From an uncultured Clostridia bacterium (GTDB taxonomy: Bacteria; Bacillota; Clostridia; Christensenellales; UBA1242), in assembly GCA_944377485.1 (NCBI GenBank), contig CALWFB010000005.1:12236-76235 (forward strand): a stretch of 64,000 nt of DNA, written 5' to 3'. Under the pieces are notes generated by a model that saw only the letters and a program-made list of their open reading frames with translations, was not told the DNA's origin and did no database searches. The first letter of the stretch is position 1, and every line of letters begins with the position of its first letter. The position numbers and the translations under genes were made by a program. Shown here one piece after another: positions 1,993 to 57,212 of this stretch.

Positions 1993-2253
1993 ATGAAATA
2001 TCTAATTATATCATTCAAATCTAGAAATAACGTAATGACCTTTGCGAAAATAATGCGAAAAAACGGTTTATATACCAGTGTAATCAACACTCCAAGAAGT
2101 GTTTCAATAAGTTGTGGACTAAGTATCAGAACGGAATTCCATAATTTGCAATCCGTGATAACTCTACTTCGCAAATCAAATCTATCTGGTCTAATAGGAG
2201 TTTATTCCATTACTAGAAAAGGAACTCATGAAGAAGTGGAAAAATTCTATTAA
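1993..2253 (+). CDS. DUF3343-like small protein (putative S/Se carrier-like)
   Basis: 86 aa with an INTPRSVSISCGLSIR segment typical of DUF3343. It is divergent from a cysteine desulfurase gene, which is a common pairing. Confidence 0.6.
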   Translation: MKYLIISFKSRNNVMTFAKIMRKNGLYTSVINTPRSVSISCGLSIRTEFHNLQSVITLLRKSNLSGLIGVYSITRKGTHEEVEKFY

Positions 2254-31053: not shown

Positions 31054-31278
31054 TTAATTATCTGAAATTCCTAAAATGTAATTGGCATCAGCACCTATAA
31101 CTTCACAAATGCGAGCCAATGTTTCTAATGATGGTAGTTTATTTGTTGTCCTATATTGACTAAGCAATGCAACATTTATTTCAACTGCTTTTGCAATATC
31201 CGTATATTTCATGCCACAATTCTCTAATTCTTCTTTTAATCTTGTTTTGATTAAATCTCTTCTTATCTTATTTTTCAT
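31054..31278 (-). CDS. small XRE-family HTH regulator (copy 1)
   Basis: 74 aa with a Cro/C1-type HTH (MKYTDIAKAVEINVALLSQYRTTNKLPSLETLARICEVIGADANYILG). The homologous part begins at Met17 of the track ORF. Confidence 0.85.
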   Translation of the reverse strand: MKNKIRRDLIKTRLKEELENCGMKYTDIAKAVEINVALLSQYRTTNKLPSLETLARICEVIGADANYILGISDN

Positions 31279-31346
31279 ATAAATATTATTGCCAAACGGG
31301 CAAAATATTACTTGACTTTTGCCCAACGGGAAAGTAAAATAATATT
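31279..31346. promoter_or_regulatory. 68-nt divergent control region with two palindromic operators and back-to-back promoters (module 1)
   Basis: O1 is TTGCC-AAACG-GGCAA (31289-31303) and O2 is TTGCC-CAACG-GGAAA (31319-33). For the + gene: TTGACT (31312-17), a 17-nt spacer, TAAAAT (31335-40), with the ATG 6 nt later. For the - gene: AATAAT (rc of 31285-90) lies 6 nt before its ATG. Confidence 0.65.
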
Positions 31347-31643
31347 ATGGATTGTAAAAATAAATTTTGTGTATATAATAGAAAATTAAAATGTATAAAA
31401 GATGAAATTTCAGTGAATAAGTATGGGCAATGCGCATACATTTTCTTACCAAAAGTTAAAACTTATTTTTCCGATGAAGAAAAACAGGACCATATTGATT
31501 GTTATAAAAATATATTATCCGATTTAAGTTTGGATTGGTATCTATACACTGAAAAATTAAAAATAGAAAATACTGAAATAAAATTAACAGATGAGGACAA
31601 TTTCAAAGATATTATCAATCGTTATTTTAACCGTCATCAATAA
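31347..31643 (+). CDS. small four-Cys protein, N-terminal DUF1540-like Cys motif (copy 1)
   Basis: MDCKNKFCVYNRKLKCIKDEISVNKYGQCAYIF shows the pattern C-x4-C-x-Y-N-x4-C-x3-E-I-S-V...C. It is divergent from XRE copy 1. Confidence 0.6.
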   Translation: MDCKNKFCVYNRKLKCIKDEISVNKYGQCAYIFLPKVKTYFSDEEKQDHIDCYKNILSDLSLDWYLYTEKLKIENTEIKLTDEDNFKDIINRYFNRHQ

Positions 31644-31854
31644 TTCCCAATATATAATTAGCATCTGCCCCAATAACTTCACAAATTGTAGAAAAATTTT
31701 CTATTGAGGGTAATTTTTTTCCACTTTTATATTGACTAAGTAATGCCACATTAATTCCAACAGCCTTAGCAATATCAATATATTTCAAACCACAATTTTC
31801 TAGTTCTTCTTTCAATCTTTTTTGTATTATTTCTCTTCTTAACTGTTTATTCAT
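31627..31854 (-). CDS. small XRE-family HTH regulator (copy 2, paralog of 31054-31278)
   Basis: 75 aa, roughly 70% identical by eye to copy 1 (LKYIDIAKAVGINVALLSQYKSGKKLPSIENFSTICEVIGADANYILG). Its 3' end overlaps the preceding + gene by 17 nt. Confidence 0.85.
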   Translation of the reverse strand: MNKQLRREIIQKRLKEELENCGLKYIDIAKAVGINVALLSQYKSGKKLPSIENFSTICEVIGADANYILGIIDDG

Positions 31855-31923
31855 ATGTATATTATTTACCAATGGGCAAAAAAATACTTGACGTTTACCA
31901 TTGGTAAACAATATAATATACAT
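31855..31923. promoter_or_regulatory. divergent control region with two palindromic operators (module 2)
   Basis: The operators are TTACC-AATG-GGCAA (31866-79) and the perfect palindrome TTTACCA-T-TGGTAAA (31894-908). For the + gene: TTGACG (31888-93), an 18-nt spacer, TATAAT (31912-17), with the ATG 6 nt later. For the - gene: AATAAT (rc of 31861-66) lies 6 nt before its ATG. Confidence 0.65.
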
Positions 31924-32208
31924 ATGAAATGTAAAAATTTATTTTGTGTATTTAGTAGAAGAAATGGTGAATGCATAAAGAAGTATATCTCCTTTGATGA
32001 AACAGGAATGTGTGAGCATATTTTTTATCCAGAAAGATTAAAAGGAATGCAAGACAGTTTAAAAGAATGTTATACAAAGGTTCCAAAAGGAATGGAAGGA
32101 CACCATTATAGACGTGAGATAATGTTGTATCTTCTAAACCAAGAACTCCGAGGAATCAAAAATTCAAGCAATCCAAAACAAGAAAAAGAAAATAAATCTC
32201 AACATTAA
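31924..32208 (+). CDS. small four-Cys protein, N-terminal DUF1540-like Cys motif (copy 2)
   Basis: MKCKNLFCVFSRRNGECIKKYISFDETGMCEHIF shares the Cys pattern with copy 1, while the C-terminal halves are unrelated. The homologous region starts at Met24 of the track ORF. Confidence 0.6.
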   Translation: MKCKNLFCVFSRRNGECIKKYISFDETGMCEHIFYPERLKGMQDSLKECYTKVPKGMEGHHYRREIMLYLLNQELRGIKNSSNPKQEKENKSQH

Positions 32209-32243
32209 TGAGATTCTAATTAATACATTTTCATATATAATGT

Positions 32244-32279
32244 CGCAAAAGCACTACGAACCTACTTTTGCGTTTTTTT
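32244..32279 (+). terminator. rho-independent terminator after the second Cys-rich gene
   Basis: cgcaaaag-loop-cttttgcg followed by ttttttt. Confidence 0.7.
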
Positions 32280-32308
32280 GTAAAAAAATTTTCAAAATTC
32301 TAATAAAA

Positions 32309-32662
32309 ACCTATTAATATAGGAAAAAGAGTAATGAGAGAAAACCTTTGGTAGTCGTCGAACATACAAAAAAAGAACCTATATCAAACATAAAAATATA
32401 AAATAATTAATTTATATAGTTATCATATCAATATTAACCATTAAAGAAAAATATTTAAAATAAATACCTATTGTTGGAAAGGAAGTAATGAAGGAAAACC
32501 TTTGCAAGGTGTTCCTTCATAGATGACGGGCAATCGCCCATAAATGAAAAAATCTCACTTTATAGTGATATTTTGATTAAAACGATAAAAAGTTTATCCT
32601 ATTTCAAAGGGGGAGTAATGAGGGGGAAAGACAGTTTTCCCCCTCATATAGTGTCGCAATAG
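32309..32662 (+). repeat. three dispersed copies of a CCTATT...GGAAAGGAGTAATGAGGGAAA repeat, each with an SD-like run, an ATG and (copies 2 and 3) a hairpin that pairs the ATG
   Basis: The ATGs are at 32334, 32488 and 32618, spaced 154 and 130 nt apart. Hairpins are atgaaggaa/ttccttcat (32488-32520) and atgagggggaaa/tttccccctcat (32618-32646). Confidence 0.6.
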
Positions 32663-32728
32663 CACGCTAATGCTATTTTTGCGATTTTACAAAAAAAATC
32701 GCAACTAGCACAAGGGCTAATTGCGACG

Positions 32729-32767
32729 CAGGTTGATGGCAACTATCTATTTTCTCGGGTCGTCTCC
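32729..32767 (-). pseudogene. orphan duplicate of the 3'-terminal 39 nt of the 5S rRNA locus
   Basis: The 39-nt string caggttgatggcaactatctattttctcgggtcgtctcc is identical to 32931-32969, the 3' part of the intact 5S gene. Confidence 0.85.
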
Positions 32768-32930
32768 GCGTCACGACTCTCGTATTTACTTAATTGCTCG
32801 CATCAACTCGCAATTTTCGTCTATCTCTCGGTCGTTCCTTTCCCCCACAAAACTTAATTTTGTAGGGACCCCTTTAGATTTGGTTGTTCGACGAAAATAT
32901 AAAAAAAGAACTCGTATCAAACGAGTTCAT
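32768..32930. other. 163-nt element between the 5S fragment and the intact 5S gene; homologous to 56794-56954
   Basis: Shares co-linear blocks with the tRNA-Leu-locus element: CGTC, ATTG(C/T)TCGC, CTCGCAATT, GTAGGGACCC and GACGAAA. Its right end contains the 5S terminator. Confidence 0.6.
32900..32928 (-). terminator. rho-independent terminator of the 23S-5S unit
   Basis: gaactcg-tatcaaa-cgagttc with a T-run on the minus strand, immediately 3' of the 5S gene. Confidence 0.7.
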
Positions 32931-32933
32931 CAG

Positions 32934-33053
32934 GTTGATGGCAACTATCTATTTTCTCGGGTCGTCTCCAACCAAATATCTTCGACGTGTAAGAGCTTAA
33001 CTTTTGTGTTCGGAATGGGAACAAGTGGAACCTCTTAGCTATTATCACCATCA
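32934..33053 (-). rRNA. rrf: 5S ribosomal RNA
   Basis: The reverse complement reads tgatggtgataatagctaagaggttccacttgttcccattccgaacacaaaagttaagctctt...gttgccatca. The conserved CCGAACAC/GTTAAGC core and a terminal helix are present. Ends are accurate to about 5 nt. Confidence 0.88.
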
Positions 33054-33280
33054 TGGTACATTGAACATCAATTTTCATTGATTTAGAACAATGACAGCTG
33101 CATACTTCGGACATTTGACTTTTTGGCAAATTGCTATGCAATTATAGCCTTTTTAGTCAATGTCCTTCATTACTTCTTTTCCTTTTATCATAATATGATT
33201 ATTAAATAATGAAATAAGAAGACAACGAAGTAAATATAAATACCGTAATTTAGTCAAAAATCATTTCTCAAAAGGAAGGT

Positions 33281-36207
<2,927 letters not shown>

Positions 36208-56476: not shown

Positions 56477-56768
56477 ATTGTTATTATACCACAATTTGAA
56501 TTAAAAACAAAACATAAATTAAATATATTGTCACAATATAAAATATTGTTTTCAACTTAAAATGATATTGTAAAACATTTGTATTTTATAAATTATTTGT
56601 AAAAACTCCTTGCCAAAATTAAAAATTTATTGTATACTATAAAAGTACTTATACGAATTAATGCTCGATTATCTTTCTTCCTACTTCGAACTTTGTTCTT
56701 GTAGGGACCCGTCTTGTGCTTTGATTTTATAAGCATGTTGACGAAATTGTTTATCTTAATCAAATTAT

Positions 56769-56793
56769 GCCGGTGTGGCGAAATGGCAGACGC
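56769..56793 (+). pseudogene. orphan 5' fragment (acceptor 5' strand plus D-arm, 25 nt) of tRNA-Leu
   Basis: Identical to 56955-56979. Identity stops exactly at the D-stem / anticodon-stem junction. Confidence 0.85.
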
Positions 56794-56954
56794 TCGTCCC
56801 AATCTGCACCTTTGTTAGATTGTTCGCTACGCTCGCAATTCTAATTTAGTTTGATTGCTCCTCTTCCTACTTCGAACTTCGTTCTCGTAGGGACCCGTCT
56901 TGTGCTTTGATTTTATAAGCATGTTGACGAAATTATTTATCTTAATCAAATTAT
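56794..56954. other. 161-nt element between the tRNA-Leu fragment and the intact tRNA-Leu; homologous to 32768-32930
   Basis: It has the same block order and nearly the same block offsets as the 5S-locus element. Details are given in the findings. Confidence 0.6.
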
Positions 56955-57040
56955 GCCGGTGTGGCGAAATGGCAGACGCACAAGACTCAAAATCTTGCGA
57001 GGGCAACCTCATGTCGGTTCGACCCCGACCACCGGCACCA
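56955..57040 (+). tRNA. tRNA-Leu (anticodon CAA), class II with long variable arm, CCA encoded
   Basis: Acceptor GCCGGTG/CACCGGC; D-arm GCG-AAATGGCAGA-CGC; anticodon arm CAAGA-CTCAAAA-TCTTG; variable arm; T-arm GTCGG-TTCGACC-CCGAC; then ACCA. Confidence 0.92.
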
Positions 57041-57212
57041 TTAAAAAATACCTATTTTATAGCACTTTTATTAACTTTTAACATTTTAAAACATAGTTGA
57101 TATTTTATTAATTGTTTATTTTGACCCCATTCTTCATACAAAAAACTAGCACATGGCTAGTTTTTTATTATTTATAAGTTAAATTTCTAATTCTGAATAT
57201 TTTATTTGAATA

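Follow-up and report, generated by a model that had tools for sequence, protein, structure and literature searches.

Elements that integrate into tRNA genes and restore the gene they enter are normally kilobases long and carry their own integrase. The attC sites of integrons are structured sites of about 60 to 140 nucleotides (nt), with a structure that is better conserved than the sequence and with strand-specific folding, and integron cassettes form tandem arrays of short units that are excised as small circles. In the IS110/IS1111 elements, the bridge RNA or seekRNA measures 150 to 200 nt and contains a guide-bearing binding loop. For cis-mobilizable elements (CIMEs) and the accretion of integrative elements, successive integrations at the gene-proximal att site lead to tandems and to layers that decay outward (PMC5704250), and the accretion of decayed integrated elements at attR, including the target gene end, is documented for integrative elements (PMC5704250).

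Our analysis of a 64-kb stretch of DNA, referred to here in its whole length as the window, revealed a sequence of about 160 nt, designated E, that is inserted at both a 5S rRNA gene and a tRNA-Leu gene. As in CIMEs, an element-borne copy of the gene end restores the target gene. Taken together with its distribution in related genomes, E has the appearance of a small mobile cassette, and of one that has not been catalogued before.

Two inserts of the same kind in the window

The window has a G+C content of about 29% and contains a 23S-5S pair (33279-36207 and 32936-33052, minus strand), an SRP RNA gene and a single tRNA-Leu(CAA) gene. Since no 16S rRNA gene was found within 28 kb upstream of the 23S-5S pair, this genome has unlinked rRNA genes. 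Both the 5S and the tRNA-Leu genes are intact, as judged by Rfam and ARAGORN. The first-pass annotation had described the inserts at 32768-32930 (163 nt) and 56794-56954 (161 nt) as homologous, co-linear and in the same orientation, and our alignments bear this out with a z score of about 7. Global and permissive local alignments of the pair gave z = 6.9-8.5 against shuffles, and none of 2000 shuffles reached the observed score, so that the pairwise similarity is significant; stringent local scoring taken alone gave p of about 0.03.

Every block offset listed in that annotation was also correct when read directly in the sequence. CGTC is found at positions 2-5 and ATTG(C/T)TCGC at positions 26-34 of both inserts, CTCGCAATT at 40-48 in the 5S copy versus 39-47 in the tRNA copy, GTAGGGACCC at 95-104 versus 94-103, and GACGAAA at 123-129 versus 133-139; the spacing of 46 nt from CTCGCAATT to GTAGGGACCC is identical in both copies. 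The latter block occurs three times in the 64-kb window, only at the 5S and tRNA-Leu loci, and shuffled sequences yielded 0.32 matches with one mismatch allowed. The blocks are thus conserved between the two window inserts, but they are not universal, as the copy in the related contig L084 lacks CTCGCAATT and GACGAAA.

Full-length E was measured in four independent copies (163, 162, 161 and 162 nt), and its core of about 125-145 nt extends from (G/T)CGTC to GAC(GAA). At both unrelated targets and in all species seen, the left end is the same homologous nucleotide, (G/T)CGTC, and directly abuts an internal position of the gene. There is no open reading frame (ORF) inside or adjoining E. The element is antisense to the 5S gene, sense to the tRNA-Leu gene and inverted in the relative L050, and its orientation is therefore independent of target transcription.

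The 5S locus contains the following features.

32347-32389, plus strand: eroded remnant of an outer, older E (positions 112-155), 82% identical to 32879-32922
32698-32727, minus strand: old 5S terminator, still joined to the displaced gene fragment
32729-32767, minus strand: left direct repeat, the displaced 5S 3′ end (5S nt 84-117 plus 5 nt of flank)
32768-32930, plus strand: E, 5S-locus copy (163 nt), core GCGTC...GACGAAA plus terminator module
32908-32928, minus strand: intrinsic terminator inside E, now serving the intact 5S gene (GAACTCGTTTGATACGAGTTC followed by TTTTTTT)
32931-32969, minus strand: right direct repeat, the 3′ end of the intact 5S gene
32936-33052, minus strand: intact 5S rRNA gene, the target (Rfam RF00001, 87.4 bits)

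The two copies of the 5S gene end form a perfect direct repeat of 39 nt (32729-32767 and 32931-32969). As proposed in the first-pass annotation, it is E that provides the 3′ terminator of the 5S gene on the minus strand (32928->32908). This terminator and the old one (32727->32698) are unrelated to each other, which indicates that the insert, in pushing the old gene end and its terminator outward, replaced both with new ones. The sequence left of the displaced fragment is unrelated to E, and since the terminator of this left unit is likewise unrelated to that of E, the window 5S locus carries an insertion and not a tandem copy. No promoter-like site was found upstream of E at this locus, where E is antisense to the operon and lies beyond a terminator. 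The remnant of the outer E is better preserved in strains L071 and L053.

The tRNA-Leu locus contains the following features.

56610-56638, plus strand: promoter-like site P (TTGCCA, 17 nt, TATACT) upstream of the tRNA-Leu array
56651-56768, plus strand: older 5′-truncated E (positions 45-161) plus native flank, 88% identical to 56794-56954, with a covariance-model match
56769-56793, plus strand: displaced tRNA-Leu fragment (nt 1-25), identical to 56955-56979
56794-56954, plus strand: E, tRNA-locus copy, core TCGTC...GACGAAA of about 144 nt plus about 17 nt of native flank
56955-57040, plus strand: intact tRNA-Leu(CAA) gene, the target

The order of gene fragment, E and intact gene described in the first-pass annotation is therefore present at both loci, and the fragment duplications set the inserts apart from ordinary spacers. 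At the tRNA locus, that description needs two corrections. First, it had recognized a single layer of E, whereas there are two, the overlooked one being the third, truncated copy at 56651-56768; a search of the window with nhmmer revealed no copy besides this one and the two inserts. Second, the last approximately 17 nt of the insert (TATCTTAATCAAATTAT) are the native tRNA 5′ flank. This stretch can be recognized as native because in L050 the sequence TATCTTAAT..AT directly precedes the tRNA gene despite the inverted E.

Formally, the tRNA locus is a 186-nt tandem repeat. Its two 118-nt segments with 97% identity (56676-56793 and 56862-56979) are as long as this because the truncated third copy of E precedes the tRNA fragment. 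Once the native flank is recognized, the true tRNA duplication amounts to about 40 nt (flank plus nt 1-25), which is comparable to the 39 nt at the 5S locus.

States of both loci in related genomes

Relatives of the 5S locus were found via the neighboring hydrolase, with one additional metagenome match (L053), and relatives of the tRNA-Leu locus via homologues of DNA polymerase I (PolA). The best named relatives of the window PolA are Candidatus Onthoplasma MAGs with 72-75% identity, which places the source organism among uncultured Bacilli of the gut.

At the 5S gene, E with the same left junction is also present in L053, L084 and L087, and the order of fragment, E and intact gene recurs in the latter two. 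In L053, 187 nt left of the fragment are replaced by 48 nt. L084, whose hydrolase is 79% identical, contains the old terminator, a 39-nt fragment, a divergent E of 162 nt and the 39-nt repeat. The terminator at the end of its E is homologous to the old one and differs from it by compensatory changes in the stem, and the contig stops after the repeat and GC, two bases into an apparent further unit; judging from this sequence, L084 probably carries a tandem array.

The related genome or strain L087 provides an empty-site allele, in which the old terminator comes directly after the intact 5S gene and E is missing. The L087 scaffold consists of two parts joined by a run of N; the empty 5S junction itself is contiguous. 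Compared with this junction, the window contains exactly E and one repeat extra (202 nt). A copy of E, with its own 36-nt 5S fragment on the left, is located about 750 nt further out in L087; this outer E (positions 1 to about 115) continues from about position 115 into the same sequence that in the window comes after the eroded remnant. Hence, the inner E is intact and the outer one eroded in the window, while L087 shows the reverse.

Within any one genome, the 5S fragment matches the gene end exactly, while genome-specific substitutions (AACTATC versus AACGATC; GGGTCGT versus GGGCCGT) distinguish the genomes. The copies of E between these repeats align partly, with nhmmer scores of 79 bits for L084 versus 118-119 for the others and about 78% identity by blastn across the locus. 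The identity of the repeats within a genome while E diverges points to continuing recombination through the repeats.

The following states were found at the tRNA-Leu locus (identities are those of PolA versus the window).

Same-species contigs, 99%: two-layer structure as in the window
L081, 96%: window structure plus a 39-nt hairpin insert inside the displaced tRNA fragment
L044, 85%: promoter, E positions 71-158 and tRNA, without fragment
L083, 83%: same promoter and tRNA with an unrelated 85-nt A+T-rich leader, E-free
L048 and L049, 79%: decayed tRNA fragment, two identical 187-nt units (E plus tRNA nt 1-25) and the gene
L050, 75%: decaying E on the opposite strand between promoter and tRNA

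Site P is conserved upstream of tRNA-Leu in L044, L048, L050, L081 and L083, and the order of fragment, E and intact gene recurs in L048, L049 and L081. In a local search, the inverted E of L050 scored 28.9 bits (E value of about 1e-6). The tRNA-locus copies of E are 81-88% identical across species by blastn where aligned, and the PolA proteins of these species are 79-85% identical. The state of L044 had suggested that the 3′ half of E is the native tRNA-Leu leader; we rejected this possibility since L083 lacks such a leader and E is inverted in L050.

Two further rearrangements were observed at this locus. In L048 (2990-3630, compared with 56600-57040 of the window), the whole block of promoter, E and tRNA-Leu is inverted relative to polA, so that it is co-directional with polA in L048 and divergent in the window, L044, L050 and L083. 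In L081 (about 2157-2195, minus strand), the displaced tRNA-Leu fragment is broken by a 39-nt hairpin with a perfect stem (tcgggttCCCTAAAAATtacattgaATTTTTAGGGtgag), apparently with an AA duplication; by its sequence, this hairpin may be a separate tiny palindromic insertion element.

Predicted fold of E

RNAalifold, run on seven copies of E (three 5S-type and four tRNA-type) that represent about four lineages, predicted the two nested helices P1 and H_X; the hairpins H_A and H_B come from further folds. In the 5S copy, the predicted helices are as follows.

32773-32778, plus strand: 5′ strand of helix P1 (ACGACT)
32830-32835, plus strand: 3′ strand of P1 (GGTCGT), partner of 32773-32778
32792-32815, plus strand: hairpin H_X (AATTGC, 12 nt, GCAATT), inside P1
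32844-32867, plus strand: hairpin H_A (CCCACAAAA..TTTTGTAGGG), which ends in the GTAGGGACCC block

In the tRNA copy, they are as follows.

56799-56858, plus strand: P1 (CCAATC at 56799-56804 with GATTGC at 56853-56858), enclosing H_X (GATTGT at 56818-56823 with GCAATT at 56835-56840)
56866-56891, plus strand: H_A (CCTAC..GTAGG)
56897-56928, plus strand: hairpin H_B (GTCTTGTGCTT..AAGCATG..GAC), present only in tRNA-type copies

P1 is a long-range helix between positions 6-11 and about 60-68 that encloses H_X (25-30 with 43-48). In the combined P1/H_X structure, 96% of cells are paired; shifting the partner by 1-3 columns lowers this share to 21-46%. In P1, both bases have changed in a compensatory manner at four of the six pairs among the seven copies, and its strands read CAAUC/GAUUG (tRNA-type copies), ACGAC/GUCGU (window and L087) or AAAACU/AGUUUU (L084). 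A C-G pair in H_A of the window 5S copy is T-A (U-A) in L087, and the inner stem of H_A is entirely different in tRNA-type copies. In L084, a different hairpin (GTCAC..GTGAC) replaces H_X at about the same place. H_B is rich in G-U pairs on the tRNA-sense strand, and its comparison with L044 and L048 was done by eye. The strand preference of the fold is clear in tRNA-type copies and ambiguous in 5S-type copies. Collectively, the compensatory changes in seven copies support a conserved secondary structure of E.

The first-pass annotation had recommended covariance analysis once at least five copies were available, and the run on seven copies returned the compensatory changes in P1. What it had noted as an inverted repeat of blocks 2 and 3 (AATTGC...GCAATT) corresponds to H_X. 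The block GATTGYTCC constitutes the 3′ strand of a helix and not a spacer. The annotation had suggested a structured RNA or a set of protein-binding sites, and a conserved secondary structure is supported by the co-variation in P1 and H_A. We also considered the GATTGYTC repeats as arm-type protein sites; they are more readily accounted for as one strand each of two helices, the 3′ one of P1 and the 5′ one of H_X.

Searches for further copies, known families and a recombinase

A search of 185,579 species genomes with the pattern GTAGGGACCC..GTT.GACGAAA gave 22 matches, all of which proved to be chance matches by nhmmer. Two pattern scans of viral-contig collections gave chance matches or none, and a metagenome scan with the 5′ blocks gave one true match, L053, from the same species. 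The genome and metagenome scans used exact block patterns, and the true match came from the same species only. BLAST searches of both loci against phage and plasmid collections returned tRNA fragments or nothing. No Rfam family overlapped E at gathering thresholds or at an E value of ≤10, and permissive Rfam scans gave only weak chance matches, none of them on E. Thus, like the first-pass annotation, we could assign E to no known class by Rfam, phage or plasmid matches. About 29 ORFs of the window were scanned with Pfam and PHROGs, and none encoded an integrase, a serine recombinase or an HUH protein.

The metagenome pattern also matched by chance a conserved stretch (…GATTGTTCGCCCCTCGCAATC…) in about ten to a dozen soil contigs with 51-58% G+C (L052, L054-L059, L061, L062 and L070). 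This stretch looks protein coding and is unrelated to E by nhmmer.

Two candidates for target recognition were rejected. A common recognition sequence in the two duplicated gene ends (CAGGTTGATGGC versus CCGGTGTGGCG) was not significant (p = 0.15), and one sequence-specific enzyme would therefore need another way to recognize both targets. A guide for the target carried by E was marginal in the window 5S copy (p = 0.04) and absent from L084, L087 and the tRNA copies.

Comparison with known mobile elements

E shares with CIMEs the gene-end repeat next to an intact gene (the 39-nt perfect repeat at 5S; tRNA nt 1-25 plus flank at tRNA-Leu). The empty-site allele of L087 may correspond to an empty attB. 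Unlike CIMEs, it has no known parent ICE or IME and no known integrase: no recombinase of a parent ICE, IME or prophage was found in the scanned window ORFs, and no phage, plasmid or viral match was obtained. Moreover, E duplicates the 5′ part of the tRNA gene with its flank and not the 3′ end, one of its targets is a 5S rRNA gene, and its co-varying fold spans what would be the two arms of a CIME. At about 160 nt, E is far smaller than any CIME known to us.

The likeness to integron attC sites lies in a structured sequence whose fold is conserved better than its letters, strand-specific folding and short units in tandem, and the proposed excision of E would likewise yield small circles. However, E contains no R″/R′ core sites (RYYYAAC/GTTRRRY), no integron integrase was found among the scanned window ORFs, no attI is present, and the cassette content would be only a gene fragment. 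Integron cassettes also insert without target duplication, whereas E is accompanied by one.

Like MITEs and the palindromic elements of the IS200/IS605 type, E is small, noncoding, hairpin-rich, lineage-specific and presumably mobilized in trans, and it has short complementary ends (CGTC...GACG). In contrast to MITEs, it lacks real terminal inverted repeats, as the first-pass annotation had noted, its ends sharing only CGTC/GACG, and it lacks a short target-site duplication of fixed length, the flanking repeats of 25-118 nt differing by locus. IS200/IS605 elements cause no duplication, whereas the repeats on either side of E measure about 40 nt or more; in addition, H_X and H_A are unrelated in sequence, and the left flanks of E (GACGC at tRNA-Leu, TCTCC at 5S) have no fixed tetra- or pentanucleotide in common. 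The copy number of E is also very low in comparison with both kinds of elements, with three copies in 64 kb at two loci.

Finally, the 5′ domain of E resembles an IS110/IS1111 bridge RNA in that a stem (P1) is followed by a large, two-sided internal loop (14 + 13 nt) and a stem-loop (H_X). IS110 elements differ in having an adjacent DEDD recombinase gene and in leaving no long repeat upon insertion, while E has no ORF inside or beside it, and the similarity of its loops to the targets was not reproducible across copies.

Proposed origin and movement of E

The explanation that we consider best, if tentatively and at somewhat less than an even chance, is that E constitutes a small, non-autonomous, lineage-specific, noncoding and structured mobile cassette, comparable to a miniature attP or cis-mobilizable element, for which recombination inside the duplicated gene end would account for both gain and loss. 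The fixed left junction, the restoration of the gene, the replacement of the terminator, the E-free alleles, the tandems and layers, and the identical repeats all fit integration and excision via the gene end. The E-free states are the 5S junction of L087 and the tRNA-Leu locus of L083 with the same promoter, and the tandem growth is best seen in L048, where two identical 187-nt units are accompanied by a decayed third.

Under this explanation, the duplicated gene end would be the crossover segment, or att-like core, of a Campbell-type integration, in which a small circular or tandem intermediate of E and the gene end would recombine with the chromosomal gene end. The old gene end would be pushed outward while the gene stays intact, and the reverse reaction would delete E and one repeat. 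Repeated rounds, together with unequal exchange between repeats, would produce tandem arrays, outward-decaying layers and E-free alleles. The fold (P1, H_X and H_A) may be the part recognized by the recombination machinery, in the manner of attP arms or a folded attC, and the enzyme would be encoded elsewhere or would be RecA acting on the repeats. We infer this enzyme, the circular intermediate and the first arrival of E at the two unrelated targets. Against a cassette, a circle of 186-202 bp would be very small for double-stranded recombination, and E is known from only two targets in one narrow lineage, as covered by the pattern scans of genome, metagenome and viral collections. The tRNA-targeting integrases known to us duplicate the 3′ part of the tRNA gene and not the 5′ part. 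Furthermore, homologous exchange from repeat to repeat could by itself yield all the variation among the compared genomes.

This last point leads to the main rival of the integrative cassette, which requires no dedicated mobility and which we consider rather unlikely: E would be an old flank that underwent rare illegitimate tandem duplications, followed by unequal homologous exchange or deletion between the repeats. Such an origin would suit the tRNA locus, with its 186-nt tandem repeat, and the two identical units of L048, since at both of these the units are homologous over their full length; the terminator of L084 is duplicated together with the 5S end, as a tandem duplication predicts, and the searches found no recombinase in the scanned window ORFs and no copies of E elsewhere. 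At the window 5S locus, however, the units are not homologous over their full length, the left unit is not E and the terminators are unrelated, which argues for insertion. Two independent illegitimate events would also have to share the same breakpoint of E at 5S and tRNA-Leu, the homology between the flanks of two unrelated genes would be left unexplained, and E is inverted in L050.

Alternatively, E might be a functional structured RNA, a leader co-transcribed with tRNA-Leu from site P that affects tRNA processing or expression, with a fold that serves this RNA function and with a secondary, transposed and possibly inert copy at 5S; we regard this as unlikely. It would account for the helices of tRNA-type copies, which contain several G-U pairs that are A-C mismatches on the other strand, and for the position of E between a conserved promoter and the tRNA in five species, where copies remain alignable at 81-88% (blastn, where aligned). 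In L048, moreover, the loop of H_B is complementary to the tRNA 5′ flank (p = 0.013). Yet L083 lacks E, and L050 carries it inverted and decaying; the 5S copy is antisense, promoterless and beyond a terminator, and still its helices co-vary among 5S-type copies. No Rfam family matches E, and an RNA role leaves the gene-end duplications unexplained. Hence, the RNA reading fits the tRNA locus but fails to account for the 5S locus, the duplications and the states in which E is missing or inverted.

A bolder version of the cassette seems to us decidedly unlikely, namely, that E belongs to a novel class of miniature mobile elements in which the folded strand of the element itself, as RNA or single-stranded DNA, would specify insertion into structural-RNA genes. 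P1, the internal loop and H_X would form a programmable recognition domain, the gene end would be copied so that the essential gene survives, and the recombinase would be encoded elsewhere or borrowed from the host.

Finally, a derivation of E from two larger integrated elements (prophage, ICE or IME) that lost their gene content by deletion, leaving the fused attL- and attR-proximal arms of a classical cis-mobilizable element, seems to us very improbable. In its favor, gene-restoring gene-end repeats are the hallmark of tyrosine-integrase att sites, decayed elements and accretion at an att site including the target gene end are documented (PMC5704250), and the region 3′ of tRNA-Leu is strain variable, with a 95-nt stretch 93% identical to a distant relative. 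Against it, independent deletions in two elements would not give copies that are co-linear over their full length with an identical 46-nt spacing and with total lengths that stay within 161-163 nt in all four independent copies. In addition, P1 connects what would be the left arm with the middle of E, and no related sequence was found in the phage, plasmid and viral collections.

If the favored cassette is truly mobile, E would be the smallest "gene-restoring" integrative cassette known to us, and it would suggest that a recombination activity acts in trans in this poorly known group of uncultured gut Bacilli, which is related to Candidatus Onthoplasma. At a length of about 160 nt, this unit nevertheless is gained, lost, inverted and multiplied in tandem among close relatives. 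Should it lack autonomous mobility, E still explains the assembly breaks at both loci (contigs L001, L036-L038, L041-L043, L071 and L085) and marks the 5S 3′ flank and the tRNA-Leu leader as recombination hot spots at which terminators and leaders are rewritten.

Other features of the flanks

Just 3′ of tRNA-Leu, a stretch of about 95 nt (57041-57134) is about 93% identical to L050, the PolA of which is only 75% identical. The stretch is absent from L044, L083 and L048, and the genes beyond it differ between strains (L034 versus the window). Possibly, a variable island is attached to the tRNA 3′ end and this stretch forms its edge.

Downstream of the 5S gene, a terminator-like module (GTCGCAAnAGCAC...TTTTGCG plus a T-run) is duplicated at 32235-32287 and 32646-32698, 411 nt apart, with 74% identity. 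As the two modules bracket the eroded remnant of E and an AT-rich region B, they may be the repeat of one more old duplicative insertion. The same flank contains three plus-strand copies of the motif GGAARRGAGTAATGARGG (32302-32350, 32459-32504 and 32589-32624), which is the reverse complement of 33163-33182 in the 23S-5S spacer (compared region, 33163-33214). In the rRNA-sense transcript, the middle copy (32476-32495) is complementary to a spacer stretch at 19 of 20 positions, and the motif is kept at 20 of 20 in the relative L086, despite an identity of only 62% in the neighboring protein. Possibly, the motif once formed the 3′ half of a stem for pre-5S processing and is now cut off by the terminator of E. 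Further out, between the hydrolase gene and the 5S flank, two paralogous modules (31054-31441 and 31627-31960) lie in tandem with about 78% DNA identity. Each has a small gene of the HTH (Cro/C1) type together with a small, divergent ORF that matched no family, and the number of modules varies among relatives (L071-L073 and L087).
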